Notes: generated by a model not told the origin, from the sequence alone. A stretch of DNA of 64,000 nt from Minisyncoccota bacterium (GCA_041660025.1 JBAZXD010000001.1:236162-300161); one strand, 5' to 3'; positions 1-62,416 are shown, counted from the first letter of the stretch. A program made the numbers and translations.

Positions 1-143
1 ACGAGCGATCCGGCAAGCACGATGAGGGCGACCCATGCACCGGACACACCTAGATATTTCCCGACGATTGACCATAGGGCGTATGCAGAAGCTATGCCCG
101 ATGCCCATAGGATAAGAGTGGGGGTGAGTGCGGGTATATTCAC
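1..143 (-). CDS. partial CDS (5' end only) of a hydrophobic membrane protein; GTG start
   Basis: RC of 1-143 translates VNIPALTPTLILWASGIASAYALWSIVGKYLGVSGAWVALIVLAGSL with no stop. AAGGAG SD (RC of 150-155) lies 6 nt upstream of the GTG. Confidence 0.35.
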   Translation of the reverse strand, partial: MNIPALTPTLILWASGIASAYALWSIVGKYLGVSGAWVALIVLAGSL

Positions 144-278
144 GAAGTTCTCCTTGGGTTGATTGTTGGTAGGAACCGCTTATTGTTTCTGAAAGAATGA
201 AAACATGTACGAATAGCACTGTCAAGAGTTCGCGAAAGCAGGCATTAGAAGGACTTTTCTTGATATACTCGGAGCACT

Positions 279-1316
279 ATGGCGCACCAGTCCCTCTATC
301 GGATACATCGGCCCGCAACCTTTGCGGATGTGGTAGGGCAGGAGCAGGTAACGAAGCCGCTGGAAGAAGCGGCGAAGTCGAAGAAGATCGGCCACGCCTA
401 CCTCTTCGCCGGAAGTCGAGGGCTGGGGAAGACTAGCGTCGCGCGCATCTTTGCGGATGCTATCGGTTGTACCGAGAACGATTTGTATGAAATAGACGCG
501 GCGAGCAACAACAGCGTCGAGGACATCCGCGCCTTGACCGAGGGCGTGTACACTCTCCCGTTCGCCTCGCCCTACAAGGTGTACATCCTGGACGAGGTGC
601 ATATGCTCTCCAAGGGCGCGTGGAACGCATTTTTGAAGACGCTCGAGGAGCCGCCTGCACACGCAGTATTCATTCTCGCGACGACCGAGCTCGCGAAGGT
701 GCCCGAGACCGTGCAGTCGCGCTGTCAGGTGTTCGAATTCAAGAAGCCGACGCGAGCAGTACTGGCGAAGATGACCGCCGCGGTGGCGAAGAAGGAGGGG
801 TACACGCTCGCGAGTGACGCCGCCGAGCTTATCGCTCTCTTGGCAGAGGGCTCGTATCGCGATGCGCTCTCGGTCCTGCAGAAGGTGTTCGCCTCATCTC
901 CGGACAAGAAACTCTCGCGGGAGGAGGTAGAGGCGGCGACCGGCGCGCCGAAGCGCGAACACGTGCACGCGCTCATTGCCGCGCTCGCCCAGGGTGAGCG
1001 CGGCAAAGCGCTGGAGGCGATTGAGAGGGCGGCAAAGGCCGATGTGGATATGAAGCTTTTCTTGGAACTTGTGCTGGAAGCGCTTCGCGCCACGCTCCTC
1101 ATCCGCTACGCGCCGGAGCTCCGTGCCTCGCTCCAGAGCGAGCTCGGCGCGGACGAGTTCTCGGCGCTTGAAAAGTTCGCAGCGGGGAAGGATATCACGC
1201 ACGCGACGATGCTCGCCTTCCTCACCGCCGCCGAGCGCATCCGCTACGCGCCCATCCCCGCGCTCCCGCTCGAACTCGCCGTCTTGGAACTCTTTCCTGA
1301 CGGGGAGGAAAAGTAG
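279..1316 (+). CDS. dnaX: DNA polymerase III clamp-loader subunit (gamma/tau DnaX-like, or delta'); AAA+ ATPase
   Basis: Walker A GSRGLGKTS, SRC motif (TVQSRCQVF) and Walker B ILDEVHML; 345 aa. Confidence 0.75.
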   Translation: MAHQSLYRIHRPATFADVVGQEQVTKPLEEAAKSKKIGHAYLFAGSRGLGKTSVARIFADAIGCTENDLYEIDAASNNSVEDIRALTEGVYTLPFASPYKVYILDEVHMLSKGAWNAFLKTLEEPPAHAVFILATTELAKVPETVQSRCQVFEFKKPTRAVLAKMTAAVAKKEGYTLASDAAELIALLAEGSYRDALSVLQKVFASSPDKKLSREEVEAATGAPKREHVHALIAALAQGERGKALEAIERAAKADVDMKLFLELVLEALRATLLIRYAPELRASLQSELGADEFSALEKFAAGKDITHATMLAFLTAAERIRYAPIPALPLELAVLELFPDGEEK

Positions 1317-1346
1317 TGGTAGAGTTTCTTTGTGCGGTATATCCTT

Positions 1347-1419
1347 TGGGGGATCGTCTAACGGTAGGACATGGGCCTTTGAAGCCCAGTATCTTGGTTC
1401 GATTCCAAGTCCCCCAGCC
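1347..1419 (+). tRNA. tRNA-Gln (anticodon TTG)
   Basis: Cloverleaf: acceptor TGGGGGA/TCCCCCA, anticodon stem TGGGC/GCCCA with loop CTTTGAA, T-arm CTTGG-TTCGATT-CCAAG. Close to E. coli tRNA-Gln. Confidence 0.8.
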
Positions 1420-1510
1420 GATTTTTAAGCGTAAAAATCGCGTCGAAAATGTGCTCATTTCGACGAAGGTTTTTTGAGGCAGGTTCGGACTCCGAGGAGG
1501 TTAAACCTGT

Positions 1511-2236
1511 ATGAGTAAAACACAACAATCGCAAAATGATCTGAAAAAGCATCTGGATGAGCAGTTGCATTTTCTGCGTACGTCTGCTGATTCGTATGAC
1601 GCGGGTTACGAAGCCGAAGCAAAGCGTTTGGCTGTAATAATTAGAGTTTTACTTCATGACACTGCGCTAAGTACATCTTTGCTGTCACAACTTGGGCTCA
1701 AGGATAGTCTAGATTTCTACGATTCTGGAATAGTTGAAGGTCCGGGTGTTGCAATAGGTGGTGGCGCATCCCTCGTGGTTATACCTGGCGGTGGCGGGAA
1801 TGCAATCCCATTTTTTGACGATTCTCCCCCTGGAACTAATGGTTATGTAAAATTTACAAAGTATTGGGACAGACCAGTTTTGGAAACTAGAGAAAAACAC
1901 TTCACAAGGAAGGAATTGGTCCTGAGTGTTGCAAATGGAGATGGAGGAGCACATGTTGATCCTGAGTTGGACGAGGAGTACGCAAATCTTTCGCGTAATG
2001 ATGCATTTGGGTGGAAAGCTGGTACCTCTGAGACTGGAATGTCTCCAGTTGGGATAGTCGAGTTGGCTTCTATTAGGCAAATTGCTCATGAGATACTGAG
2101 GACTCTAATCCCAGACTATCCACAGAAAATGCTCCCCAGGACGGGACTGGGCCTCATGTTCCCTAGAATTATTGCTATTAAAGTTGATCCGGAAGATAAA
2201 AAAAAGGACCAAAACAGTCAATCCGAAGAGGGTTAG
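1511..2236 (+). CDS. hypothetical protein (AT-rich island gene 1)
   Basis: ORF with GAGGAGG SD upstream; Gly-rich segment GGGASLVVIPGGGGNAIPFF; no family recognised. Confidence 0.55.
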   Translation: MSKTQQSQNDLKKHLDEQLHFLRTSADSYDAGYEAEAKRLAVIIRVLLHDTALSTSLLSQLGLKDSLDFYDSGIVEGPGVAIGGGASLVVIPGGGGNAIPFFDDSPPGTNGYVKFTKYWDRPVLETREKHFTRKELVLSVANGDGGAHVDPELDEEYANLSRNDAFGWKAGTSETGMSPVGIVELASIRQIAHEILRTLIPDYPQKMLPRTGLGLMFPRIIAIKVDPEDKKKDQNSQSEEG

Positions 2237-2382
2237 AACGGTAAAATAAAAAGTAATCAAAAAAGCCTTGCGGGGCTTGGCGGTATAATGTTCGAGACCG
2301 ATGAGGTCAGCCAAGTCGAGCTAGGTTATCGCGCACGAGATACGTTGCTTAACAAAGTCAGTGAAAGAGATATAATTGACTT

Positions 2383-2889
2383 GTGGATACAATCATACAA
2401 CTAACCCTTGGTCAGGTCTTGGGAGGGACAGCTTTTTTGATAACGTGTGTAGGTCTCCTCCAGTGGCTGATATCTAATTGGCTCAAAATAAGACTAGAAC
2501 AATCAATTAGACATGAGTATGATAAACAGCTTGAAGAGTATAAATTTGCGATTTCGAAACGAGACAGAATTGCGAACATCGCATCCTTCTTTTCGCTATG
2601 GATAAAGTATAGAGGACATGAAAGAAAATGGCTGAATGACAGGGATTTGATTGACTACTATAGAGAGCTCACTCAAATGTCTTTTGAACTAGCATTATGG
2701 GTTGATGATGAGGATCTCTTAAAAGAGGTGATGAAGCGGCTAAAGAATGAAGATGGTTCAGAGAATACAGTCGAGTTATTACTTAGGGCGAAAGGATTGA
2801 TTAGTGAAAACAAAAATTCTACGTTAGGGGCCGACAATATTACTATATGGCCTGCCGACATTAAATTCATTGAAGAGGGGCCAAAATAA
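2383..2889 (+). CDS. hypothetical protein with N-terminal TM helix (island gene 2)
   Basis: 168 aa; hydrophobic N-terminus LGGTAFLITCVGLLQWLI; AT-rich. Confidence 0.5.
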   Translation: MDTIIQLTLGQVLGGTAFLITCVGLLQWLISNWLKIRLEQSIRHEYDKQLEEYKFAISKRDRIANIASFFSLWIKYRGHERKWLNDRDLIDYYRELTQMSFELALWVDDEDLLKEVMKRLKNEDGSENTVELLLRAKGLISENKNSTLGADNITIWPADIKFIEEGPK

Positions 2890-2952
2890 AAGTTCAAGAC
2901 GCATATCAAGGTACTTTTTGCAGTAAGAGCTTTAGGCTCTCACTGCAATTTT

Positions 2953-2961
2953 TGGTATAAT
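2953..2961 (+). promoter_or_regulatory. extended -10 TGGTATAAT; ATG at 2968 is 7 nt downstream (leaderless start)
   Basis: Exact TGnTATAAT consensus; no SD between box and ATG. Confidence 0.5.
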
Positions 2962-2967
2962 CCCTCT

Positions 2968-3333
2968 ATGAAAATCTTTGTTGCCCATTCGAGCAATTTC
3001 GACTTTAAGAATAAGCTCTACGCCCCGCTCCGTAGTTCCGCGCTCAATACCGAGCATGAGATACTTCTCCCTCAGGAAGGGGAGATTGAAGAGATTACGC
3101 GGGAAATGATTAACGGTTGTGACGCAGTCGTGGCGGAGGTATCAGCGCCCTCACTCGGCGCCGGTATCGAGATCGGCTGGGCAGACGCCGCCGGCGTCCC
3201 GGTCATCGCTCTGTACGAGAAGGATGCGCACCCGTCATTCTCTATCGATAATGCCGTCACCGATCGTTTCGCATATGAGAACGCGGACGATATGCTCGAG
3301 AAGCTAGAAGCCGCTCTCAAAGAACTTCAATAA
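2968..3333 (+). CDS. nucleoside 2-deoxyribosyltransferase-like (NDT/DNPH1-fold) small protein
   Basis: 121 aa; CDAVVAEVSAPSLGAGIEIGWADAAGVPVIAL resembles the NDT-family DxGTxFExGyA...GKPV core. Confidence 0.55.
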   Translation: MKIFVAHSSNFDFKNKLYAPLRSSALNTEHEILLPQEGEIEEITREMINGCDAVVAEVSAPSLGAGIEIGWADAAGVPVIALYEKDAHPSFSIDNAVTDRFAYENADDMLEKLEAALKELQ

Positions 3334-3394
3334 ACTTGGAAGTCGAACTTCCAAGTTAGAAACGTGCGGGCAGATTCGGGAGTTATCACAGGGT

Positions 3395-3703
3395 ATGAGC
3401 AACAATCCATTTTTAAATGCCTTTGCGGCGACGGCGTATATCACCGGTATCGCGCTCGCGATGCGGTATGGGCCTAAGGGGCCCGGTGTGGACAGCAGTT
3501 TCATCGCGCCCATTGCCTTCCTCTCCCTCTTCGTTCTCTCCGCCGCGCTGATGGGCTACCTCTTCTTCTACCAGTCCGTCCGGCTCTTGATCGAGGGGAA
3601 ACAACAGGAAGCGGCGAAGTTCCTGTTCACGACCGTGGCGGTGTTCGCCTGCATCACGGGTGCATTTCTCATTGTGTGGCTTATCATCAGCACTCTGCTC
3701 TAG
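3395..3703 (+). CDS. small integral membrane protein (3 predicted TM)
   Basis: 102 aa, strongly hydrophobic. Confidence 0.5.
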   Translation: MSNNPFLNAFAATAYITGIALAMRYGPKGPGVDSSFIAPIAFLSLFVLSAALMGYLFFYQSVRLLIEGKQQEAAKFLFTTVAVFACITGAFLIVWLIISTLL

Positions 3704-3739
3704 GAAGTAAGGGTCAGCTCGGTAGGTTATAATCGAATT

Positions 3740-4099
3740 ATGAACGAAGGGAAACCGAAAGATGAAAAAGTCGTTGACCTTACCGAACGTCAAAGGCAGG
3801 AAATGAATGCGAACAGACGGAAAAGTATAGAAATAACGTCCGAAGGGAGAATCCGGTATCCAGAAGAAGTCCTCGGGATAACGACACGTCAGGCAATAGA
3901 GATCGCCAAAAGGATCGTTGAAGACACTATTGATCTGGATGAGTCGAAGATTGCTTCACAGCGTGAATATATTTCCCTGTCTTCTGTTGGAGAAATACTT
4001 AAGGCGCTTGAACGTTATGAAAAATCCCCTGAATTGTATTCAAGAGAATATGCGCGTGCCATCGCTGAAGAATTAATGAAAAGGTTTCCAGCAAAATAA
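3740..4099 (+). CDS. hypothetical protein (island gene 5)
   Basis: 119 aa; GTTATAAT box at 3726-3733 places the TSS at the ATG. Confidence 0.5.
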   Translation: MNEGKPKDEKVVDLTERQRQEMNANRRKSIEITSEGRIRYPEEVLGITTRQAIEIAKRIVEDTIDLDESKIASQREYISLSSVGEILKALERYEKSPELYSREYARAIAEELMKRFPAK

Positions 4100-4107
4100 G
4101 GCTCTCT

Positions 4108-4136
4108 AAACGGCTCAGACCCCGTCTGAGCCGTTT
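4108..4136 (+). repeat. 29-bp perfect palindrome AAACGGCTCAGAC-CCC-GTCTGAGCCGTTT, copy 1 of 4
   Basis: 13-bp arms with CCC loop; identical copies at 5128, 38858 and 62327. Confidence 0.9.
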
Positions 4137-4276
4137 GAAACGCTCAGTTTTTATTTATGCGGCTTGATTCCATAGATAAAGAAACACTTGTCTTTTATGA
4201 AAGAAAGTTTATAGTGTGTCCAGGCCGCTGTGTGTAGTGGCAAAGATAACGTAGGAATAACCAAAAGGAGCACTGC

Positions 4277-5059
4277 ATGACACCAGAAAACCAGCAAAAT
4301 AAGGAGACAGGCTCCAAACACGTCGATATGGGGGTCGTCTACGACGCCTTTTCGGAGGCGTTCAGGGAGGCTGACCAACTGCCGACGTGGCGGTTCGCCG
4401 GGAAGCCGGCTATGGAGAAACTGCTGGGAGCCTCTTTCGGTTCCAACGCACGTTTCTTGGACTTGGGGTCCGCGAGCGCGCGCGTTGAGGCGGGAGTTCT
4501 GCTTCCCGCTGGCGTGCGTCCCGAAGAGATCACCGGCGTCGAGATTAGCCCGGAGCAAGTGGGGATGGCGAAAGCCCGAATCCCCGGGGCTATCTTCTTC
4601 GTGGGAGACATCACAGATGTGTCGTTGCTGTCTGACCAGTCGGGCGAGTACGACGTGGTGTTCTCGCATATGGTGTTCGAGCACCTCGACGATGCCCAGC
4701 TCGCATTGGCGTGCGCGAACGCATTCCGGCTCCTCAAGTCGAAAGGGACGTTCGCGTTCGTGGTAACCCATCCGGACAAAATGACCGACACGGAAGGGAA
4801 CCTGGTCACGACGTTCGGCGCATTCAAAACGACGGCGCCCTGGGGAGGCGAACTCCACAATTGGCGCAGGAGCGTCGAACAGACGCTCGATATCGTTGAA
4901 GGCGCGGGGTTCCAGTTGGAACTGGTCGAAGGAGTCCAGTTTCCTGAAGAACCGCCGGCTGATTTGAAGGCGGAGGACCTCGCAGCATTTCGCGAAGCGT
5001 CCAAGAAGTATCGAAAATATCCGGCCATCCGGCTCGCGGTAAAAGCAACAAAACCATAG
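4277..5059 (+). CDS. class I SAM-dependent methyltransferase
   Basis: Motif I LDLGSASA, GVEISPEQV, DVVFSHMVFEHL; AAAGGAG SD upstream. Confidence 0.75.
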   Translation: MTPENQQNKETGSKHVDMGVVYDAFSEAFREADQLPTWRFAGKPAMEKLLGASFGSNARFLDLGSASARVEAGVLLPAGVRPEEITGVEISPEQVGMAKARIPGAIFFVGDITDVSLLSDQSGEYDVVFSHMVFEHLDDAQLALACANAFRLLKSKGTFAFVVTHPDKMTDTEGNLVTTFGAFKTTAPWGGELHNWRRSVEQTLDIVEGAGFQLELVEGVQFPEEPPADLKAEDLAAFREASKKYRKYPAIRLAVKATKP

Positions 5060-5081
5060 GCTCAAAAGGCCGCGGACTCAG

Positions 5082-5110
5082 ACGGCGCTTCCGAGCGCCG
5101 TTCTTTTTTA
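5082..5110 (+). terminator. rho-independent terminator
   Basis: ACGGCGCT-TCCG-AGCGCCGT hairpin followed by TCTTTTTT. Confidence 0.7.
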
Positions 5111-5127
5111 ATCCGCCTACTACCATC

Positions 5128-5156
5128 AAACGGCTCAGACCCCGTCTGAGCCGTTT
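5128..5156 (+). repeat. 29-bp palindrome, copy 2
   Basis: Identical to 4108-4136; lies just after the terminator. Confidence 0.9.
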
Positions 5157-5185
5157 AACTTGGAAGCGAACCCTTTAAGTTTTAC

Positions 5186-5194
5186 TGATACAAT
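5186..5194 (+). promoter_or_regulatory. extended -10 TGATACAAT; ATG at 5201 is 7 nt downstream (leaderless)
   Basis: TGn-TACAAT box; no SD before the ATG. Confidence 0.45.
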
Positions 5195-5200
5195 CAGGTT

Positions 5201-5539
5201 ATGGCGACATACGAAGAGTTCCAGAAGATTGATATACGGGTGGGAAAGATTATCGAGATACAGGATTTCCCCGAAGCACGGAAGCCTGCGTATAAGTTAA
5301 AGATCGATTTCGGCTCCGAGGTAGGACTGAAGCAGTCAAGCGTCCAAGCAGTTGGCGCGCATACGAAGGAGGAGCTGTTGAACTCTCTTGTGTGTTGTGT
5401 GGTGAACTTTCCGCCCAAACAGATCGGCCCGTTCACGTCTGAGGTGCTCACGCTCGGTTTTATGAATAACGCGGGTGCTGGCTGGGTGCTTATCGAGCCC
5501 AAGAAGGGCTCGGTAGATCTGGGGAGCAGGCTCGCCTGA
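5201..5539 (+). CDS. csaA: tRNA-binding protein (CsaA/Trbp111-like EMAP domain)
   Basis: FQKIDIRVGKIIEI...KLKIDFG... matches the tRNA-binding OB-fold family. Confidence 0.75.
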   Translation: MATYEEFQKIDIRVGKIIEIQDFPEARKPAYKLKIDFGSEVGLKQSSVQAVGAHTKEELLNSLVCCVVNFPPKQIGPFTSEVLTLGFMNNAGAGWVLIEPKKGSVDLGSRLA

Positions 5540-5547
5540 ATTAGGAT

Positions 5548-6060
5548 ATGAAGTTTATCAGCATCAACGGAAGTACCTGTTCGGGGAAGAGTAGTGTCAT
5601 CAAAGAGGTCTTGAAACAGAGAGACCACCTCTTTTATTTATCCTATGATGCCGTGAAGTGGTCGTTCTCTCACTATTCTCCGGATACGCACTTTAAAGAC
5701 GTGCATACGGTGATGCTCGCTATGGCCGAGGCGTTATGCAAAATGCAATATGACGTCATTTCAGATTCAGGGCTATTCAAGAAGTGGAGGGAAGAATTAC
5801 TCAATATACCTCGCTCTCACGGATACGATGTCGTAGAAATCAACTTGGAGTGCGATTATGAACTGCTCGCGCAGAGATTCGATGAGCGTGTGGCGGCAAA
5901 ACTTGCGAATCCTGAGATCAGAATCTCGAATCTATCAAAAAACAGATTTAAGGAACTGAACGATACCTTTCAGAAAGAAAAAAATACCTCAGCTCTGACC
6001 TTCCGGACTGATACGCAGAGCCTTGAAGAAATTTCAGAAAGCGTACTGAAGCTCTTCTGA
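5548..6060 (+). CDS. P-loop NTPase / putative nucleotide kinase
   Basis: Walker A NGSTCSGKSS; 170 aa; AT-richer than neighbours. Confidence 0.5.
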   Translation: MKFISINGSTCSGKSSVIKEVLKQRDHLFYLSYDAVKWSFSHYSPDTHFKDVHTVMLAMAEALCKMQYDVISDSGLFKKWREELLNIPRSHGYDVVEINLECDYELLAQRFDERVAAKLANPEIRISNLSKNRFKELNDTFQKEKNTSALTFRTDTQSLEEISESVLKLF

Positions 6061-6061
6061 C

Positions 6062-6301
6062 GTGCCGTACTTTGTCTATCTGCTCGAGTGCGAGGATGGG
6101 TCTCTCTATACCGGCGTCACCACCGACGTGAAGCGGCGGTTTGCCGAACATAAAAGCGGGATAGGGAGCAATTTCACGCGGGCGAAGAAGGCGAAGCGCA
6201 TCGTGTATACGGAGGAGCACCCCGACCGGAGCTCGGCGCAGAAGCGCGAGGCCGAGATCAAGCGCTGGTCGCGCGAAAAGAAACTGGCTCTGGTACAATA
6301 A
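6062..6301 (+). CDS. GIY-YIG nuclease family protein (UPF0213/YhbQ-like)
   Basis: FVYLLECEDGSLYTGVTTDVKRRFAEH...E..IK motifs; alternative start codon at 6062. Confidence 0.8.
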   Translation: MPYFVYLLECEDGSLYTGVTTDVKRRFAEHKSGIGSNFTRAKKAKRIVYTEEHPDRSSAQKREAEIKRWSREKKLALVQ

Positions 6302-6308
6302 TTTCGAT

Positions 6309-7385
6309 ATGTCTATACAAAAGCATGGGGCGTATGCGAGCGTCGCCGTGCTCGCGCTGGTCTACACCTTCGGCTATTCAGGCCTCGTCGCGTCGGAGTA
6401 CCGCTCTCCGTCTGCCGATGCGCCCGAGAAATTCATCCCACTGCCGGAGTTCGACAAGGCCGACTACAACGCGCGTCTGCTCGCGCTCGCGCACGTGGCG
6501 ACCACGACTGAGGTCGCTTCGAGCGATACCGCCTCGGTAAGCGTGATATCTACCAGTACGCCGTCTCTCTGGCCCGTAAGCGCGGCCTATCCGAACGCGG
6601 GGGCCATCCTGCCATTCAAGCGCGTTGTCGCCTACTACGGCAACTTCTACTCCCGAGGAATGGGCGTGCTCGGCGAATACCCGACCGAAGAGATGCTCGC
6701 GATGCTCGCGAGCACGACCGCGCTGTGGACCGCCGCAGACCCAAGGACGCCGGCAGTGCCGGCCATCCACTACATCGCGGCTGTGGCGCAGGCGACCGCG
6801 GGGAAGGAAGGGAAGTACATCCTCCGGATGCCGGACGACCAGATCGACCACGCGCTCGAGCTCGCGAATCGCGTGAATGGAATTGTCTTCCTCGACGTGC
6901 AGGTGGCGCTCAGCACGCTCCAGTACGAGCTCCCGATGTTGGAGAAGTATTTGAAGATGCCGAGGGTGCATCTCGGCATCGACCCGGAGTTCTCGATGAA
7001 GCACAATGAGCGGCCCGGGACCGTCATCGGCACCTTCGACGCCGCGGACATCAATTATGCCGCGCAATATCTCGCGAACATCGTCCGCGATAATCACTTG
7101 CCGCCCAAGATCCTCGTCGTGCACCGCTTCACGCAGGATATGGTAACGAATTATAAAAATATTAAACCCTTGCCGGAGGTGCAGATAGTGATAGATATGG
7201 ACGGCTTCGGCTCGAAGGAGAAGAAATACGGGACCTATACCAGAATCGTCGCGCCGGAGCCGGTGCAATTCACGGGCATCAAACTCTTCTACAAGAACGA
7301 TACGAGGCCACCCGCCAACGGCCTCCTCTCGCCGGCCGAAGTGCTCAAACTCACTCCCGCGCCGATGTATATCCAGTACCAGTGA
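6309..7385 (+). CDS. hypothetical exported protein (signal peptide)
   Basis: N-terminal hydrophobic segment; 358 aa; TGGTACAAT box at 6291-6299 lies 7 nt before the TSS. Confidence 0.55.
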   Translation: MSIQKHGAYASVAVLALVYTFGYSGLVASEYRSPSADAPEKFIPLPEFDKADYNARLLALAHVATTTEVASSDTASVSVISTSTPSLWPVSAAYPNAGAILPFKRVVAYYGNFYSRGMGVLGEYPTEEMLAMLASTTALWTAADPRTPAVPAIHYIAAVAQATAGKEGKYILRMPDDQIDHALELANRVNGIVFLDVQVALSTLQYELPMLEKYLKMPRVHLGIDPEFSMKHNERPGTVIGTFDAADINYAAQYLANIVRDNHLPPKILVVHRFTQDMVTNYKNIKPLPEVQIVIDMDGFGSKEKKYGTYTRIVAPEPVQFTGIKLFYKNDTRPPANGLLSPAEVLKLTPAPMYIQYQ

Positions 7386-27006: not shown

Positions 27007-27082
27007 GGGCCCTTAGCTCATCTGGTAGAGCGCCTCATTTGCAATGAGGAGGTAAGCGGTTCAAGTCCGCTAGGGTCCACCA
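27007..27082 (+). tRNA. tRNA-Ala (TGC), CCA encoded
   Basis: G3:U70, acceptor GGGCCCT/AGGGTCC, anticodon loop TTTGCAA. Confidence 0.85.
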
Positions 27083-27153
27083 AAGTTTTTGATTACATTC
27101 GGCTTTCCAATCTGGGAATCTAATCGGATATCTGCTATGGTAAAGTTGTGCTC

Positions 27154-27227
27154 GCGCTCCTAGCTCAGTTGGTTAGAGCGTACGCTTCACACGCGTAAGG
27201 TCGCAGGTTCGATCCCTGCGGAGCGCA
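27154..27227 (+). tRNA. tRNA-Val (CAC)
   Basis: Acceptor GCGCTCC/GGAGCGC, anticodon loop TTCACAC. Confidence 0.8.
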
Positions 27228-27246
27228 CACGGGAGGTGTTCTGTGT

Positions 27247-27317
27247 CGGGCCGGAGTATGCCGGTAGTACGTACGATTCGGGTTCGTATAGACCGGGTTC
27301 GATTCCCGGCGGCCCGA
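27247..27317 (+). tRNA. tRNA-Pro (CGG)
   Basis: Acceptor CGGGCCG/CGGCCCG, anticodon stem TACGA/TCGTA with loop TTCGGGT. Confidence 0.75.
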
Positions 27318-27413
27318 CAGAGAACGTCTCCTAACGCGGGCTATAAGTAAGCTTGTATCTCCGCGTTCCGGAGAGAATAATCACGAGAAGACTCGTGTTA
27401 TTCTTCCTCCACG

Positions 27414-27484
27414 CGGGCTATCGTATAATGGTAGTACGCATGGCTGGGGGTCATGCAGCCTGGGTTCGATTCCCAGTAGCCCGA
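27414..27484 (+). tRNA. tRNA-Pro (GGG)
   Basis: Acceptor CGGGCTA/TAGCCCG, anticodon loop CTGGGGG. Confidence 0.75.
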
Positions 27485-27607
27485 TGAAAATAATTTTCGA
27501 GCGTGGTAGCATATTCCGCACGGGCCCGTATCTTCGCGGACTCGATACAGAACCCTCGTTCGGAGAAACTGAACGAGCGAAGACGTTCATTCAGTTTTCC
27601 TCACTTC

Positions 27608-27680
27608 GGGCCCGTAGCTCATCTGGTAGAGCGCGTCATTCGCATTGACGAGGTAAGCGGTTCAAGTCCGCTCGGGTCCA
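27608..27680 (+). tRNA. tRNA-Ala (CGC)
   Basis: G3:U70, anticodon stem CGTCA/TGACG with loop TTCGCAT. Confidence 0.85.
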
Positions 27681-27882
27681 CATAATAGGAAAGCGCAACA
27701 AAACGGCCACTTCTGGCTTGTACTTTCCCGCTGTGTGGTCTATTCTTGAAATAGCTCGGACTTTCGCCGCCGGTGGGGTGGTGGCGAGTACCTCTGCTGA
27801 AAACCGCAAAAGAGCCCGAGGAAACATCGGCTCGAACCGTGTAGTGTGAGGAAAAGAAAATTTCTTATTCATACAATTCAAT

Positions 27883-28515
27883 ATGAAACGAACTTTCAAA
27901 ATTGGTGGAGTAATAATACTTGTTTTACTTTTGAGCGGAGGTTTCATTCGTTGGTTTTTTTCTCCTTTTTTCACATCAGACGAATGTAAGTACTATCAAG
28001 AAAGACTTGCATCTAGAGCTTGTTATGCACTTGATGGCACAATAATACCTATTGCTGAACAGCCAGGCACCATGTTCACAATTCGTTATGATTACGCTTT
28101 CGGAATGGGACCGGGTTGGAGTGCGTACTCAGAAAAAGAATCTAACGGACAAGCACGGTTTTGGACCTATCTTAATCCCCACACAACACTCCCTATATCC
28201 ACCGACGGGACTCGGTATATTGCGCTCTACTATGTTGGCGACAATCAAAGCGGGAAAGATAATCTGTATTTAGGACTCTTTTCTCTTCCGACTTCCGCCA
28301 GAGGACCATTTACATATCAGGACGCGGTTCTTGTTGGAAGTGGTAAAAGAAGTCATTTATCCCACACCACTTTCGAACAGAGGAGTGATGGTGTGATACA
28401 AGTGTCTTACAAAGTAACTCGCTTTGTAGATGATGCTCAACCACAATTGCAGACTGTTCTAGAGGACACGGTGCTTTACCAGATAATTGGCGATAAAATA
28501 CAGGAAATTCAATAG
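27883..28515 (+). CDS. hypothetical signal-anchored/secreted protein in an AT-rich cassette within the tRNA cluster
   Basis: 210 aa; N-terminal TM GGVIILVLLLSGGFI. Confidence 0.5.
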   Translation: MKRTFKIGGVIILVLLLSGGFIRWFFSPFFTSDECKYYQERLASRACYALDGTIIPIAEQPGTMFTIRYDYAFGMGPGWSAYSEKESNGQARFWTYLNPHTTLPISTDGTRYIALYYVGDNQSGKDNLYLGLFSLPTSARGPFTYQDAVLVGSGKRSHLSHTTFEQRSDGVIQVSYKVTRFVDDAQPQLQTVLEDTVLYQIIGDKIQEIQ

Positions 28516-28748
28516 AAATTGTACACAGGTGATACCTGTAGATGGATATGTTAGGAGTACAATATACTCATGCAACAAATGTCCTTGCGACAGTAGGCGA
28601 TGAAACTTCGTCAGAAGGGAAAACGTATTCTGAAATAGAAAGCTTTAGTTGAAGGGGTCTATGGTGTAGCGGTAACGCGTGACTATGGCATAATCGAATC
28701 TCGGGCTCGATTATCCCTAGGTCCACCGTGCGTCGGAAAGAAGGGAAT

Positions 28749-28824
28749 GGGCCCTTAGCTCATCTGGTAGAGCGCGTCCATGGCATGGACGAGGTGACCG
28801 GTTCAAGTCCGGTAGGGTCCACCA
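28749..28824 (+). tRNA. tRNA-Ala (GGC), CCA encoded
   Basis: G3:U70, anticodon stem CGTCC/GGACG with loop ATGGCAT. Confidence 0.85.
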
Positions 28825-38857: not shown

Positions 38858-38885
38858 AAACGGCTCAGACCCCGTCTGAGCCGTT
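38858..38885 (+). repeat. 29-bp palindrome, copy 3 (last base diverged)
   Basis: AAACGGCTCAGACCCCGTCTGAGCCGTT then C. Confidence 0.85.
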
Positions 38886-38916
38886 CGGGGGGTTGCCGTA
38901 TCGCCCTTTTCCTGTG

Positions 38917-38925
38917 TGGTATAAT
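38917..38925 (+). promoter_or_regulatory. extended -10 TGGTATAAT; ATG at 38934 (leaderless)
   Basis: Exact consensus 9 nt before the ATG. Confidence 0.5.
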
Positions 38926-38933
38926 GCAGGCAT

Positions 38934-39905
38934 ATGGACAAACCCAAAACAACAGCAAAGGATTTCTTCTTGTGGGCGGGGGCGATGGTGACCTTCTACT
39001 GGAGCGTCATTGCGTTCGTTCTCCTCACGTTCGATTACATCAACTACACGTTCCCGAATGTGCTGAGCTATTACCCGGCCGACCCGTACCAGAGCGGCAT
39101 CAGCTACGAGATGGCGTCGGTCATTGTTCTTCTGCCGATCTATATGCTGCTTATGTGGCTCATCCGTAAGGATGCTTTCGTGGATACATCAAAAAAGGAA
39201 ATATGGGTGCGCCGCTGGGCGATCATCCTCACGCTCTTCGTCGCCGGCATCGCCGTGGCCGCCGACCTCATTACTCTGCTTACCACCTTCCTCAACGGAG
39301 AGGCGCTGACGACCGCATTCCTCCTCAAAGTGCTCATCGTCTTCCTCGTTGCGGTGGGAGTATTCCTGCACTTCATCGCAGATCTGAAGGGCTACTGGGA
39401 CGCGTTCCCGCTCCGGAAACGTGCGGTCTGTAGCGGTGTAGCGGTCCTCGCTCTTGCCACGATAATCGTCGGCTTCTTCATCGTCGGTACGCCGGCGGAG
39501 GCGCGCCTCGCGCGCTTCGACGCAGAGAAGGTGATTGACCTTCAAAACATCCAGTCGCAAGTTGTGTATTACTGGCAGGCGAAGCAGAAGTTGCCGGCGG
39601 CGATTACCGACCTCGAAAACTCTCTCGCATACGGCCCCTTACCAGTCGATGCTCAAACAGGAGAATCGTATGTGTATCAGGCGACCGGAGCACTCTCGTT
39701 CAAGCTCTGTGCAGACTTCAACGCGGCGAGCCGCGCCAATCCAAGCGCTCTTACGGAGACTCGTCCCGTTGAACCGGTTCCGGTTGGTGTCGGCGGCAAG
39801 GACGTCATGATGCAAGTCGACAACTGGCAGCACAGCGCGGGACAGGTCTGCTTCGACCGGACCATCGACCCGAGCTTCTATCCGCCGCTTACCAAGCAAC
39901 CGTAA
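38934..39905 (+). CDS. hypothetical multi-TM membrane protein
   Basis: 323 aa; N-terminal half strongly hydrophobic. Confidence 0.55.
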   Translation: MDKPKTTAKDFFLWAGAMVTFYWSVIAFVLLTFDYINYTFPNVLSYYPADPYQSGISYEMASVIVLLPIYMLLMWLIRKDAFVDTSKKEIWVRRWAIILTLFVAGIAVAADLITLLTTFLNGEALTTAFLLKVLIVFLVAVGVFLHFIADLKGYWDAFPLRKRAVCSGVAVLALATIIVGFFIVGTPAEARLARFDAEKVIDLQNIQSQVVYYWQAKQKLPAAITDLENSLAYGPLPVDAQTGESYVYQATGALSFKLCADFNAASRANPSALTETRPVEPVPVGVGGKDVMMQVDNWQHSAGQVCFDRTIDPSFYPPLTKQP

Positions 39906-39929: not shown

Positions 39930-42338
39930 ATGGCGTACGACCATACAGACATCGAGAAAAAGGCCCAGGAGAAATGGGCCTCTCTCGATTTATACAAGTC
40001 TGACCTTTCGGATGAGTCGAAGGAGCCCTACTACCTTCTCGTCGAGTTCCCGTACCCCTCGGGCGACCTGCATATCGGGCATTGGTACGCCTTCGCCGTG
40101 ACCGACATCTACGCGCGGATGCTGCGCGCGCGCGGGAAGAACGTACTGTTCCCGATTGGCTTCGACGCGTTCGGCCTACCGGCCGAGAATGCCGCCATCA
40201 AGCACGGCGTCGACCCGAAGGAGTGGACGTATAAGAACATCGAGCGGATGCGCGAACAGCTCGCCTCGATGGGCCCGTCGTTCGACTGGAGCAAGGAGGT
40301 CCTCACCTGCGACCCGGGCTACTACCAGTGGACGCAGTGGCTCTTTGCCAAGCTCTTCGAGCACGATCTTGCCGAGCATAAGAGTGCAGCGGTGAAGTGG
40401 TGCCCGAAGGACCAGACCGTGCTCGCGAATGAGCAGGTGGTCGACGGCCGTTGCGAGCGTTGCGGCACCGAGGTGGAGGAGAAAAAGCTGACGCAATGGT
40501 TCCTGAAGATCACCGACTACGCCGAACGCCTTCTTGAAGGATTGGAGAAATTGCCGTGGCGCAATGAGATAAAAGACGCTCAGCGCGCGTGGATAGGGAA
40601 GAGCGATGGCGCATATCTCGAATTCCAAATCGTCGGGCGCGAAGAAAAAATAAAAGTGTTCACCACGCGGCCGGACACCGTTTTCGGCGCCACCTATGTC
40701 GTGCTCGCGCCCGAGCACGCGCTTGTTTCATCACTGTTGGACGGCGTTTCAAATAAGAAAGAGATCGAGGAGTATGTGCGTACGACCGCGCAGAAGACCG
40801 AGCGCGAACGGAGCGAGAATAAAGAGAAGACCGGCGTGAAGCTCGAGGGCGTTTCAGCGATAAACCCAGCGACAAAAGAAGAAATCCCAGTCTACGTCGC
40901 CGATTACGTCCTCGCCTCCTACGGCACGGGCGCGGTGATGGCCGTCCCCGCCCACGACGAACGCGATTTTGAATTCGCACAAAAATTCGATTTGCCGATA
41001 CAGGAAGTCGTTTCCGCCGAGGGAATGCAGATCCCCTATACTGGCATCGGCACGCTTACCAATTCGAGTGAGTTTACCGGTAAGAACAGCGAGGAGGCGA
41101 AGTGGGACATCGTGAAGTATGCGGGCGGGGAGAAGGCGACTCAGTACCGCATCCGCGATTGGCTCGTGAGCCGCCAGCGCTATTGGGGATGCCCGATACC
41201 CATCGTCTACGACCCGGAGGGGAAGCCGCACGCGATACCTGCCGAGCATTTGCCCTGGCTCCTGCCGACGGATGTCGACTTCACGCCAACGGGCAAGGCG
41301 CCGCTCGCATCCTCACAAGAATTGCAGGAGCGCGTGGTGCGCATTTTCGGCGAGGGCTGGACGCCGGAATACGATACGCTCGATACCTTCATCGACTCCT
41401 CGTGGTACTTCCTCCGCTATCTCGACCCGAAAGATTCGCACGATTTTTCCGATGTGGCGCTGATGAAGAAGTGGTTGCCGGTCAATCGCTACTCGGGCGG
41501 GAGCGAGCACACGACGATGCACCTCCTCTACGCGCGATTCTTTATGAAGGCGCTCTACGACCTCGCGCTTGTGCCGGTGGAAGAGCCGTTCACTGAGCGC
41601 TTCAACCGCGGGCTCGTTATGGGCCCCGACGGGCAGAAGATGAGCAAGTCGAAGGGGAACGTCGTGAATCCGGACGAATTCGTACAGAAGTACGGCGCGG
41701 ACGCGGTGCGTGTCTTCCTTGCATTTATCGGCCCCTACAACGAGCCGGGGAGCTATCCCTGGAGCCTCGACGGCGTCGCTTCGATGCGTAAGTTCCTTGA
41801 GCGCGTGGCTAGAATGGTCGGAATTGTACAGGGAGCACAAGGGATTCTTCGCACACTAGGGAAAGAAATAAATCATAAACCGATAGATCCATTAATTGCT
41901 GCAACGGTCAAAAAAGTTGCTGAAGATGGCGACCGCTTCAAATTTAATACAGGAGTGGCTGCTCTGATGAGTCTTCTAAATGAGATGGAGATCTCATCTC
42001 AAGTATCACTCTCGAATGTTCGCGACTTTGTCATCATGCTCGCGCCTTTTGCGCCACACCTCGTCGAACACCTCTGGGAACAGCTTGGTGGGGAAGGGAG
42101 TGTTCATCAGCAGTCGTGGCCCATCTTTGACCCGAGTCTACTTATCTCGAGTACTGTGAATGTCACAGTGCAGGTCAATGGCAAGCGTCGCGGTTCGATT
42201 ATTCTTCCGGCAGACGCTCCAGAAGACAGCGCCATCGCAGAAGCTCTCAAAATTCCTGTCGTGACGGCCTCATTCACCGGTAAAGAACCAAAGCGAGTTG
42301 TGTACGTACCAAATAAAATAATTAATCTCGTTGTATAA
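39930..42338 (+). CDS. leuS: leucyl-tRNA synthetase
   Basis: HIGH (GDLHIGH), KMSKS (QKMSKSKGNVV), full-length class I homology; the last ~500 nt are AT-richer. Confidence 0.97.
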   Translation: MAYDHTDIEKKAQEKWASLDLYKSDLSDESKEPYYLLVEFPYPSGDLHIGHWYAFAVTDIYARMLRARGKNVLFPIGFDAFGLPAENAAIKHGVDPKEWTYKNIERMREQLASMGPSFDWSKEVLTCDPGYYQWTQWLFAKLFEHDLAEHKSAAVKWCPKDQTVLANEQVVDGRCERCGTEVEEKKLTQWFLKITDYAERLLEGLEKLPWRNEIKDAQRAWIGKSDGAYLEFQIVGREEKIKVFTTRPDTVFGATYVVLAPEHALVSSLLDGVSNKKEIEEYVRTTAQKTERERSENKEKTGVKLEGVSAINPATKEEIPVYVADYVLASYGTGAVMAVPAHDERDFEFAQKFDLPIQEVVSAEGMQIPYTGIGTLTNSSEFTGKNSEEAKWDIVKYAGGEKATQYRIRDWLVSRQRYWGCPIPIVYDPEGKPHAIPAEHLPWLLPTDVDFTPTGKAPLASSQELQERVVRIFGEGWTPEYDTLDTFIDSSWYFLRYLDPKDSHDFSDVALMKKWLPVNRYSGGSEHTTMHLLYARFFMKALYDLALVPVEEPFTERFNRGLVMGPDGQKMSKSKGNVVNPDEFVQKYGADAVRVFLAFIGPYNEPGSYPWSLDGVASMRKFLERVARMVGIVQGAQGILRTLGKEINHKPIDPLIAATVKKVAEDGDRFKFNTGVAALMSLLNEMEISSQVSLSNVRDFVIMLAPFAPHLVEHLWEQLGGEGSVHQQSWPIFDPSLLISSTVNVTVQVNGKRRGSIILPADAPEDSAIAEALKIPVVTASFTGKEPKRVVYVPNKIINLVV

Positions 42339-42339
42339 T
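42332..42339 (+). promoter_or_regulatory. -10 TGTATAAT overlapping the leuS stop codon; downstream ATG at 42346
   Basis: TAA stop (42336-42338) lies inside TATAAT. Confidence 0.4.
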
Positions 42340-42345
42340 CACTCC

Positions 42346-42948
42346 ATGAATACAACCCAAAAGGGTTTCGCGAGTGTTGTTTTAATTATCGCTCTAGTCA
42401 TCATCATTGTGGGTTGGTTGGGCTATTTTGAATTAACACAAAAATCGAGTGTTACTACAACCTCTAGCCCAGAAAAAAGTCAGTCAACGAAGGAAGACCA
42501 AGAAATACCCTGGAAAGAGTACGTCAATCTCGACTTTGGCATATCCTTTTCTCATCCAGACAGCTGGCAGTGCAAAACTTATAAGACAAACCTCTTTCAT
42601 CCAGATTGGTATCAAACAATCTGTGATGATGATGGCACATGGTCGGGGGACTCATTGGTAGCCATTTCGGTACCGCACACCACGAACACCCGATCGCTTG
42701 GGGTTAGCACAATTCGCAGCGGGACAATCACGGGGCAAAATTCATCTACAATCACGAAAACCATTTACCATTCTGATAAATTTGAAGATCTGGGCTCGGT
42801 TGCATATATCTTTAGCGGATCTTCGAACATGAAGAGCTATGATATGGGCGCTATGTATGGTGGCCTCGATAAACCATACAGGAGCGCTGAAGAAGCCGAG
42901 GATGTCTTGGATACCATTGCTAAATCTCTCATCATTCGCTCAAATTAA
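42346..42948 (+). CDS. hypothetical signal-anchored/secreted protein in the AT-rich segment
   Basis: 201 aa from MNTTQKGF; N-terminal TM. Confidence 0.5.
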   Translation: MNTTQKGFASVVLIIALVIIIVGWLGYFELTQKSSVTTTSSPEKSQSTKEDQEIPWKEYVNLDFGISFSHPDSWQCKTYKTNLFHPDWYQTICDDDGTWSGDSLVAISVPHTTNTRSLGVSTIRSGTITGQNSSTITKTIYHSDKFEDLGSVAYIFSGSSNMKSYDMGAMYGGLDKPYRSAEEAEDVLDTIAKSLIIRSN

Positions 42949-62318: not shown

Positions 62319-62326
62319 TTTTGCCG

Positions 62327-62353
62327 AACGGCTCAGACCCCGTCTGAGCCGTT
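62327..62353 (+). repeat. 29-bp palindrome, copy 4 (first arm base diverged)
   Basis: GAACGGCTCAGACCCCGTCTGAGCCGTTT. Confidence 0.85.
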
Positions 62354-62416
62354 TGACGTTAAGCTTTATTAAGGTAAGGTGGCGGCAGAACGGGACTGTT
62401 TCCCAAGGAGATCCAG

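Follow-up and report, generated by a model that had tools for sequence, protein, structure and literature searches.

What kind of DNA follows the tRNA-Gln gene of this Minisyncoccota bacterium, and did it arrive as a unit? The sequence analyzed is a single 64,000-nucleotide stretch (GCA_041660025.1 JBAZXD010000001.1:236162-300161; hereafter ‘the window’), in which a tRNA-Gln(ttg) gene located downstream of dnaX is followed by five small genes that we call g1 (1511-2236), g2 (2383-2889), g3 (2968-3333), g4 (3395-3703) and g5 (3740-4099). A first-pass annotation, made from the sequence alone, had proposed that these genes form an AT-rich island of ~2.7 kb that was horizontally acquired as a single defense or accessory module and that ends at a 29-bp palindrome. 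However, comparisons with related loci indicate that the variable DNA spans positions 1420-6061, and that it is probably a decayed mosaic residing at a clade-wide, recombinase-served insertion hotspot located 3′ of the dnaX-tRNA-Gln(ttg) pair in Kaiserbacteria-like Patescibacteria.

The boundaries of the variable region are evident from sister loci. With DnaX as the query and one genome taken per species, 80 loci were retrieved whose DnaX proteins are 73-90% identical to that of the window and whose labels are mostly Candidatus Kaiserbacteria, Paceibacterota or Patescibacteria (L-numbers such as L001 and L002 denote retrieved comparison loci). In 73 of the 80, dnaX is followed by tRNA-Gln(ttg). 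Genes that recur downstream of this tRNA encode a GIY-YIG protein, a 358-amino-acid protein and Nudix proteins; the first two form a pair that lies 37 bp to 8 kb away from the tRNA in about 40 sister loci. At the near extreme is L060, an empty site in which, when aligned with the window, the GIY-YIG gene begins 37 bp past tRNA-Gln. The distance from the tRNA end to the first of these anchor genes is 461-870 bp in five loci, 4642 bp in the window and 7965 bp at maximum (L041). Sister genomes either proceed nearly at once from the tRNA to the conserved pair or have a stretch of mostly unrelated genes at this point, 0.5 to more than 10 kb long. Together, the empty site and the conserved GIY-YIG/358-amino-acid flank define a variable region of eight genes at 1420-6061 that begins one base past the tRNA. 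A methyltransferase gene that had been taken as the right-hand flank, expected to adjoin the tRNA directly in an empty site, has no homologue in the 80 sister loci and falls inside this region.

The features of the locus are as follows.

279-1316, plus strand: dnaX, clamp-loader gamma/tau subunit (Pfam DNA_pol3_delta2 and DNA_pol3_gamma3); conserved left flank, with orthologues 73-91% identical upstream of tRNA-Gln in sister loci

1347-1419, plus strand: tRNA-Gln(ttg) (ARAGORN; Rfam tRNA, 62.6 bits), hotspot anchor and attachment point

1441-1475, plus strand: terminator-like hairpin plus T-run 3′ of the tRNA, from the sequence and the predicted fold of 1420-1513

1474-1499, plus strand: junction motif of 26 nt, TTGAGGCAGGTTCGGACTCCGAGGAG, marking the left end of the g1 segment and the start of homology to L002

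1511-2236, plus strand: g1, 241 amino acids, phrog_7805 family, AT-rich putative recent import

2383-2889, plus strand: g2, 168 amino acids, helical protein with a predicted membrane anchor, from a Patescibacteria-only family; AT-rich putative import

2968-3333, plus strand: g3, 121 amino acids, DNPH1/NDT-family N-glycosidase-like (Pfam PF05014)

3395-3703, plus strand: g4, 102 amino acids, small membrane protein with two predicted transmembrane segments, putative older hotspot resident

3740-4099, plus strand: g5, 119 amino acids, AT-rich member of a small, fast-evolving family recognized by HMMER

4108-4136, no strand assigned: copy of a 29-bp palindrome, one of four in the window, resembling repetitive extragenic palindromic (REP) elements and not island-specific

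4277-5059, plus strand: class I S-adenosylmethionine (SAM) methyltransferase (Pfam Methyltransf_11/25), inside the variable region

5128-5156, no strand assigned: second, identical palindrome copy

5201-5539, plus strand: CsaA-like tRNA-binding-domain protein (Pfam tRNA_bind), variable-region gene

5548-6060, plus strand: AAA_33/zeta-toxin-like P-loop kinase (Pfam AAA_33, KTI12, Zeta_toxin), variable-region gene

6062-7385, plus strand: GIY-YIG protein (6062-6301) and 358-amino-acid protein (6309-7385), conserved right flank

The tRNA and all five open reading frames (ORFs) had been placed accurately beforehand: ARAGORN and Rfam both give 1347-1419 for the former, and the latter were each recovered with identical boundaries. 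An Rfam scan of window positions 1-7000 revealed no family besides the tRNA.

Occupants of the same site in other genomes show how DNA can be delivered there. Seven sister loci (L024, L026, L035, L052, L068, L081 and L086) were found by tblastn to encode large serine recombinases at tRNA-Gln, which share 35-70% identity with the recombinases of L088 and L089, two elements that carry g1. All seven are among the loci without a downstream anchor within 10 kb. In each case the recombinase gene and tRNA-Gln converge, and for the three loci that were checked the recombinase ORF extends over the 3′ end of the tRNA (L024 11469-13159, L081 11067-12763 and L026 10984-12675), which is the arrangement expected when an integrating element supplies a new tRNA 3′ end. 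From this occupancy, tRNA-Gln(ttg) is an attachment site for integrative elements in the clade. The recombinase-bearing elements reach beyond the 10 kb retrieved; L052 additionally encodes an HNH endonuclease as well as a C5 DNA methylase.

Gene turnover at the site is very high. When 135 hotspot ORFs of 37 anchored sister loci were clustered with 13 window proteins, 107 of these ~148 proteins had no relative in the set. No homologue of g1, g2, g5 or the methyltransferase is present in any of the 80 sister loci. Other window genes do appear in sister hotspots, specifically g4 in three (50-53% identity), g3 in one (30%, L034), the CsaA-like gene in four and the kinase gene in one (L046). The closest relative found (L173/L174; DnaX 91% identical) has g4 (69%) as the sole gene in common, and the 3.2 kb beside its tRNA hold different low-GC ORFs (0.36-0.43), none with a Pfam match. 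A search of JGI metagenomes with a 39-mer of the tRNA, aimed at a near-identical strain with an empty site, yielded five contigs (closest DnaX 91%), none of them a same-species variant. The Pfam content of sister hotspots is mixed, with HAD hydrolases, MazG, dehydrogenases, transporters and methyltransferases, and also Hypoth_Ymh, RhuM/Fic and CYTH.

Base composition divides the genes of the window as well. Against a window mean of 56.6%, GC content is 0.38-0.46 over positions 1400-3000, 0.54 over 3000-3700 and 0.42-0.46 over 3700-4200. GC content at third codon positions (GC3), for which 65 window ORFs serve as the reference (0.667 ± 0.115), identifies g1 (0.364, z about -2.6), g2 (0.391, z about -2.4) and g5 (0.375, z about -2.5) as outliers, whereas g3 (0.615), g4 (0.777), the methyltransferase gene (0.713) and the CsaA-like gene (0.664) are ordinary. 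The windowed GC and GC3 profiles thus resolve the proposed ‘AT-rich island’ into two AT-rich tracts with native-looking genes between them: the reported anomaly is genuine for g1, g2 and g5 but is not shared by g3 and g4, and there is no single block. Horizontal acquisition beside the tRNA is supported, since g1, g2, g5 and the methyltransferase gene are missing from this locus in all 80 sisters and recombinase-bearing elements sit at the same tRNA in seven of them.

The composition of g1 and g2 is that of their relatives in low-GC Patescibacteria. Moreover, AT-rich DNA beside tRNA-Gln is a property of the whole clade. Among 61 genomes, the first 1.5 kb past the tRNA is on average 4.7 GC points poorer than the locus as a whole, with a deficit of more than 5 points in 25, whereas the 1.5 kb upstream of dnaX averages 0.5 points above the locus mean and is more than 5 points below it in none of 54 (Wilcoxon p 1.7e-8).

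The first AT-rich tract seems to end ~50 nt inside g3. The GC content of the first 48 nt of this gene is 0.33 versus 0.56 for the remainder, the second most extreme contrast among 63 genes, and an independent, short Logan contig from a public run (L001) that is identical to window positions 1421-3015 runs from the base after the tRNA up to this same jump. The change in composition (2968-3018) may reflect a recombination junction within the gene or strain heterogeneity of the source sample. However, genes of the window genome generally tend to start with AT-rich codons, and for this reason the junction is only suggestive. That the ends of L001 coincide exactly with the tRNA end and the GC jump could also be read as the mark of a metagenome-assembly chimera, in which a low-GC segment was joined artificially at the tRNA. 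We find this scarcely credible, given that native sequence is present on both sides, that g2 and g5 reside together on one 387-kb contig (JGI; g5 also in NCBI and ENA), that g3 is intact across the junction and retains a conserved family motif, and that sister genomes carry the same kind of AT-rich tract at the site.

The mobility of g1 is independent of the other four genes. A g1 protein that is 92% identical is encoded on lake metagenome contigs (L002-L007) from a genome of 44% GC, where the gene likewise lies right after a tRNA-Gln but in the company of different neighbors (release factor, ftsEX and CTP synthase genes). Nucleotide homology between the window and L002 (84%) is confined to positions 1474-2275, ~800 bp that comprise g1 and its leader. 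Another relative (59%) sits 3′ of a tRNA-Ser.

Might the region instead be ancestral, with its present content shaped by differential gene loss and fast divergence, and its low GC by relaxed selection on small, weakly expressed genes? The presence of g4 at 50-69% identity in the same interval of several sisters (L008, L018, L028 and L173/L174) would fit such a history, as would the native composition of g3, g4, the methyltransferase gene and the CsaA-like gene, and the recurrence of dnaX-tRNA-Gln-g2 synteny in the distant lineages L100 and L104. Yet the identity of g1 to its counterpart in a 44% GC genome is far closer than core genes would allow, and the g2 proteins of L100 and L104 are ~68% identical to that of the window where DnaX is ~50% identical. 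Given also that g1, g2 and g5 are missing from every sister species and that the g1 family is overwhelmingly found on mobile elements, we consider a purely ancestral origin improbable.

We favor a model in which the window retains the recombinase-less residue of several integration events. Two recent AT-rich imports, one consisting of g1 and g2 (1474 to ~3018) and the other of g5 (~3705-4250), would be interleaved with older or clade-internal genes, namely g3, g4, the methyltransferase gene, the CsaA-like gene and the kinase gene. In such a mosaic the five small genes would not constitute a functional unit.

The transcription signals of these genes are relevant to this last point. Each of g2, g3 and g5 carries TATAAT six bases ahead of its start codon, a signature of leaderless-type promoters. 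This arrangement before ATG starts occurs six times in the window versus 0.98 expected, with the instance at g2, which has a GTG start, read from the sequence. By contrast, g1 has a Shine-Dalgarno leader, which is embedded in the conserved 26-nt motif. Hairpins are present 3′ of g1, g2 and g3, and to judge from these elements g1 through g5 appear to be separate transcription units. Window positions at which TATAAT stands 6-8 nt before a start are 2370-2385, 2956-2970, 3728-3742, 38920-38936 and 42334-42348, mainly at small low-GC or variable genes.

According to the first-pass annotation, the five genes would be one acquired defense or accessory module in which one or more soluble effectors act with membrane partners, g2 and g4. 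The genes are indeed adjacent, on one strand and beside a tRNA, the g1 family is linked to defense islands and prophages, and contig L001 has g1 and g2 together. However, the GC3 values of g1, g2 and g5 (0.36-0.39) are set apart from those of g3 and g4 (0.62-0.78), g2, g3 and g5 have promoters of their own, and hairpins follow g1, g2 and g3. The closest g1 (92%) has none of the other four genes nearby, the neighbors of g1 in 41 viral contigs include no recurrent partner, g2 homologues never occur with g1 in eight other contexts, and g3 and g4 are found singly in the hotspots of other sisters. More generally, no pair among g1-g5 recurs in any context examined. When compared with PADLOC at E values up to 1, none of the five gave a match; the methyltransferase does hit the PADLOC model mad2, solely through its generic methyltransferase domain. 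The single-module proposal is therefore largely refuted, and we regard it as very unlikely to be correct.

A short sequence marks the left edge of the g1 segment and recurs at the hotspot in other genomes. The sequence of this 26-nt motif is TTGAGATAGGTTCGGACTCCGAGGAG, from which the window copy (1474-1499) differs by two mismatches, and homology with the g1 locus of L002 begins precisely here. Copies are found 3′ of tRNA-Gln in 12 sister loci (L008, L010, L011, L014, L017, L025, L040, L041, L043, L052, L072 and L082) and also in L170 and L002 (for example, L002 6868-6893 and L052 5644-5669). They lie about 3-292 nt past the tRNA (3-175 nt in the 12 sister loci and L170), with just 2 nt separating the two in five loci. 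In most loci the first gene starts within ~40 nt of the motif, and this gene differs from genome to genome, examples being those for a Hypoth_Ymh HEPN protein, DUF4238, DUF6864, DUF1801 and an SLOG/DprA-like protein. The motif is absent from the empty sites inspected (L060, L042 and L056), and no copy is expected in the window by chance. It contains a Shine-Dalgarno-like GGAG, and RNA structure prediction yielded no convincing fold. The motif may represent the end of an element, one half of an attachment (att) site or a portable leader.

Several observations weigh against the view of the window as a decayed mosaic at a recombinase-served hotspot. No remnant of a recombinase, transposase or integrase was detected in the window by tblastn with large serine recombinase, rve, Y1 and tyrosine integrase queries, a search whose sensitivity for tyrosine integrases is limited. 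The window also lacks a second copy of the 22-nt tRNA 3′ end. Because neither recombinase nor direct repeats are present, the decay scenario for the window genome is inferred and not shown. Across sister hotspots, tRNA 3′-end duplicates are no more frequent than chance would predict (1 observed versus 0.8 expected), with later inspection revealing partial duplicates in L008 and L056 only. Elements L088 and L089 do not have the 26-nt motif, and six of the seven sister loci with a recombinase lack it too, which leaves the link between the arrival of g1 and these enzymes circumstantial. Finally, insertions also occur between other genes of the neighborhood, for example between the 358-amino-acid gene and a Nudix gene, and hence part of the variability reflects general genome fluidity. 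The tRNA-proximal site is nevertheless the most variable point of the neighborhood. A degraded att repeat had been suspected at 4166-4180, but this site is not among the 10 window matches to a tRNA 14-mer (three or fewer mismatches), a number that is itself at chance level (7.2 expected).

Some of these same facts would be accounted for if the hotspot were filled mainly by homologous or homology-facilitated illegitimate recombination, with donor Patescibacteria DNA anchored on dnaX-tRNA-Gln and sometimes on a downstream gene such as g3. The absence of a recombinase or att duplication from the window would then be natural, and donor DNA would carry the anchor, as relatives of g1 and g2 also reside beside tRNA-Gln elsewhere. 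The low-GC tract that stops ~50 nt inside g3, matched by an L001 contig that spans exactly 1421-3015, is compatible with this route as well, and Patescibacteria are thought to take up DNA. Set against this, the tRNA anchor is just 73 nt long and the isoacceptors of the window and L002 are only 83% identical, the site has true integrase-type occupants in seven sisters, and duplicated tRNA 3′ fragments of the kind left by site-specific integration are present in L002 and L008. In addition, the g3 junction is weakened as evidence by the AT-rich first codons that are general in this genome. We therefore judge recombination of this type to be an unlikely main source of the cargo and retain the model of repeated integration events followed by decay.

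Duplicated tRNA fragments of the integration type were found in L002, L008 and L056 and not in the window. In L002, which carries the 92% identical g1, a tRNA-Gln(ctg) is followed by an inverted tRNA-3′-like fragment (6595-6619; 0.04 expected by chance), and ~290 nt downstream 13 nt of the tRNA 3′ end are repeated in direct orientation, 2 nt ahead of the 26-nt motif. From this arrangement, the segment 6577-6870 looks like the scar of a small integration. In L006, a variant of L002, an rve-family transposase is inserted upstream of the same tRNA.

A more ambitious proposal, which we consider improbable, is that the 26-nt motif is the recombination site of a tRNA-anchored cassette-capture platform in Kaiserbacteria-like Patescibacteria, and that the g1 family is a new class of defense effector. 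Orphan genes, often of the conflict type (g1, Hypoth_Ymh HEPN, DUF4238 and SLOG-like), may enter singly behind a portable leader through an enzyme that acts in trans or has since been lost, with an outcome that resembles a tRNA-anchored integron. Members of the g1 family may then be widespread stand-alone effectors, in which a double Rx3H active site would be a divergent version of that in HEPN proteins. Unlike an integron cassette array, however, the window has no integrase that could be found by tblastn and no attC-like palindrome after g1, g2, g3 or g4.

What might g1 do? The protein matches phrog_7805 (E 1e-48) and has 878 homologues, the majority of which, unlike the window copy, have a SEC-C zinc motif at the C-terminus. 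Invariant or near-invariant positions are D30, K38, R45-x3-H49-D50, W119, R133, D144-G-G-A-H148-x-D150 and R189-Q-x-x-H193-E194. The AlphaFold model is of high quality (predicted local distance difference test score (pLDDT) 89; predicted template modeling score (pTM) 0.87), and its helical core is weakly HEPN-like in predicted fold.

The genomic habitat of the family is consistent with a role in biological conflict. Relatives are present in 59 IMG/VR contigs and in phages, as evident in the lysogeny/accessory region of Gordonia phage JuJu, near RelBE and a serine integrase, and in Lactobacillus phage PL-1, between the integrase and a Cro-like regulator. In Patescibacteria, g1 homologues reside in elements with a serine recombinase, a terminase and DNA methylases, once adjoining HEPN_AbiU2 in a prophage. 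Plasmid-borne relatives adjoin a type I restriction-modification system in Lactococcus, a Gabija-like ATPase and helicase pair plus DUF262 and Fst in Staphylococcus xylosus, and an ABC-three-component system on a Pseudomonas aeruginosa megaplasmid. No partner recurs among the mixed phage genes sampled around g1 in 41 viral contigs, nor among its neighbors in Patescibacteria contigs, where weak Zn-ribbon and VWA Pfam hits were the only ones obtained. Considering these associations and the weak fold match, it is plausible that g1 is a stand-alone defense effector of the abortive-infection type.

This functional proposal is opposed by a number of results. Foldseek found no match for the g1 model in the PDB, no PADLOC model covers the protein, and PADLOC models are matched by few of the 135 ORFs from sister hotspots. 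Profile comparisons by hhalign with an AbiU2 and a Hypoth_Ymh HEPN protein returned a probability of 0.2%, and sequence kinship with these proteins was rejected. The conserved motifs R45-x3-H49 and R189-x3-H193 depart from the R-x4-6-H motif of HEPN proteins, including abortive-infection and toxin proteins such as AbiV, AbiU2, HEPN-MNT toxins and Csm6, and g1 further differs from these by a large inserted beta-rich region and an invariant DGGAHxD loop. The case for defense consequently depends on genomic neighborhood and a weak resemblance in fold, and HEPN is a lead rather than an assignment.

Another point of comparison is Rugutis, a lactococcal single-gene, plasmid-borne antiphage protein that has a SEC-C motif and a fold without PDB match (PMC11381338). 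It shares with most g1 relatives the SEC-C zinc motif, and neither protein has a fold match in the PDB. However, Rugutis has the motif at its N-terminus whereas g1 relatives have it at the C-terminus, the window g1 is without it, and the core domains are unrelated. Identity of g1 with Rugutis was rejected, as profile comparison aligned only the 23-residue SEC-C motif. On plasmid pUCCL633A, the Rugutis gene (L098 42084-43163, 359 amino acids, N-terminal SEC-C) lies 6 kb from a g1-family homologue (L096 3001-3885, 294 amino acids).

The locus resembles tRNA-linked islands and integrative elements in that the site immediately follows the 3′ end of a tRNA, some of the cargo is compositionally atypical, the cargo is missing from relatives, an empty site exists, and recombinase-bearing elements occupy the same tRNA in seven sisters. 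It is unlike them in that the window has neither an integrase nor flanking direct repeats, and in that its content would be a stack of single-gene units of different ages rather than one element. The recombinases at this site are also of the large serine type, whereas attB sites in tRNA genes are more typically used by tyrosine integrases. With chromosomal gene-flux hotspots and defense islands, the region has in common conserved flanks, very high turnover (107 of ~148 proteins being singletons) and some conflict-type occupants (Hypoth_Ymh/HEPN, RhuM-Fic, DUF4238 and g1). Unlike in defense islands, most occupants are of non-defense types, with few of the 135 matching PADLOC models, and the site is accordingly better described as a general accessory hotspot.

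Insertion hotspots linked to tRNA genes are a familiar phenomenon, and we see no sign of a new mechanism involving several genes. This example has sharp boundaries, can be followed through some 80 species and offers an empty site, recombinase-bearing occupants and a probable decayed mosaic. Patescibacteria are episymbionts with tiny genomes, and their mobile elements and defense genes are little described; a literature search yielded nothing specific on the subject. The locus could be used to study gene gain and loss in these organisms and as a source of candidate conflict genes. The g1 family is large, widespread and uncharacterized, as judged from the spread of its sequences: it has at least 878 members, and these extend to Gordonia, Arthrobacter and Lactobacillus phages and to dairy and clinical plasmids. 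Because it has neither a Pfam or PADLOC model nor a PDB fold match, the family is a reasonable candidate for experimental defense screening.

The remaining genes of the original five offer fewer clues. Neither g1, g2, g4 nor g5 has a match in Pfam, NCBIfam or PADLOC. The expectation that g2 and g4 are membrane proteins was borne out, as g2 has one N-terminal hydrophobic transmembrane helix and g4 has two strong transmembrane segments. The 30 homologues of g2 are all from Patescibacteria or unnamed sources; none was found in viral contigs. In five of nine contexts examined a g2 homologue lies within 1.5 kb 3′ of tRNA-Gln, three of these being dnaX-tRNA-Gln loci, and the genomes concerned have 33-47% GC. 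An AlphaFold 2 model of g2 depicts a long helix and a small helical bundle at a confidence (pLDDT 72, pTM 0.46) that is too low for fold searches. In two unrelated Patescibacteria contigs (L102 4197-5519 and L107 2999-4441), a g2 homologue is directly downstream of a class I SAM methyltransferase gene; tblastn detected no homology between these methyltransferases and that of the window.

The NDT-like assignment of g3 (NDT being nucleoside 2-deoxyribosyltransferase) likewise proved correct. Its score against Pfam PF05014 (Nuc_deoxyrib_tr) is 32.0 bits, above the gathering cut-off of 28.8, and it aligns with Rcl/DNPH1, MilA and NDT across the segment that carries the catalytic glutamate (VVAEVSAPSLGAGIEIGWA in g3 versus VVAEVTQPSLGVGYELGRA in Rcl). 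Here SLGAGIEIGWA of g3 is aligned to SLGVGYELGRA of Rcl, and the G-x-G-x-E-x-G segment is kept, as it also is in the L034 homologue. The g3 protein is probably a nucleotide or nucleoside N-glycosidase that functions in salvage. Compared with DNPH1/Rcl, MilA/BlsM and the nucleoside 2-deoxyribosyltransferases, whose Pfam family and catalytic-glutamate segment it shares, g3 is shorter (121 amino acids), and its N-terminus presumably does not correspond to the phosphate-binding N-terminal motif of DNPH1. For g5, a word-indexed search returned the protein itself only, while a full HMMER search gave 29 matches including itself, that is, 28 remote relatives with 27-51% identity; among ten relatives scanned there was no meaningful Pfam match.

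The palindrome that had been taken to close the island is indeed perfect, 29 bp long and located at 4108-4136, but it is not a boundary. Its sequence, AAACGGCTCAGAC-CCC-GTCTGAGCCGTTT, is present in four copies in the window (4108-4136, 5128-5156, 38858-38886 and 62326-62354), always intergenic and with unrelated flanks. In three cases the copy lies 10-25 nt past an ordinary terminator hairpin, once after rpsI (ribosomal protein S9), and two identical copies bracket the methyltransferase gene. No copy exists in any of the 166 loci compared, the 80 sister species included. Being dispersed in the window and missing from relatives, the palindrome is best explained as a lineage-specific REP-like element or protein-binding site. 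A role as an attC-like site was also rejected, since copies follow housekeeping genes and are missing after g1, g2, g3 and g4.

Two short stretches resemble the T-arm of tRNA-Gln. An inverted 14-mer at 5159-5172, just past the second palindrome, matches it with one mismatch, and the hairpin downstream of g3 (3333-3357) is built of similar sequence; these may be tRNA-derived remnants or a coincidence. Elsewhere in the window, only two genes have comparably low GC3. One (27883-28515, z -2.9) is located inside a cluster of six tRNA genes (27007-28824), and the other (42331-42948, z -1.8) is PsbP_2-like and has a TATAAT-N6-ATG start. Both are probably other recent acquisitions.

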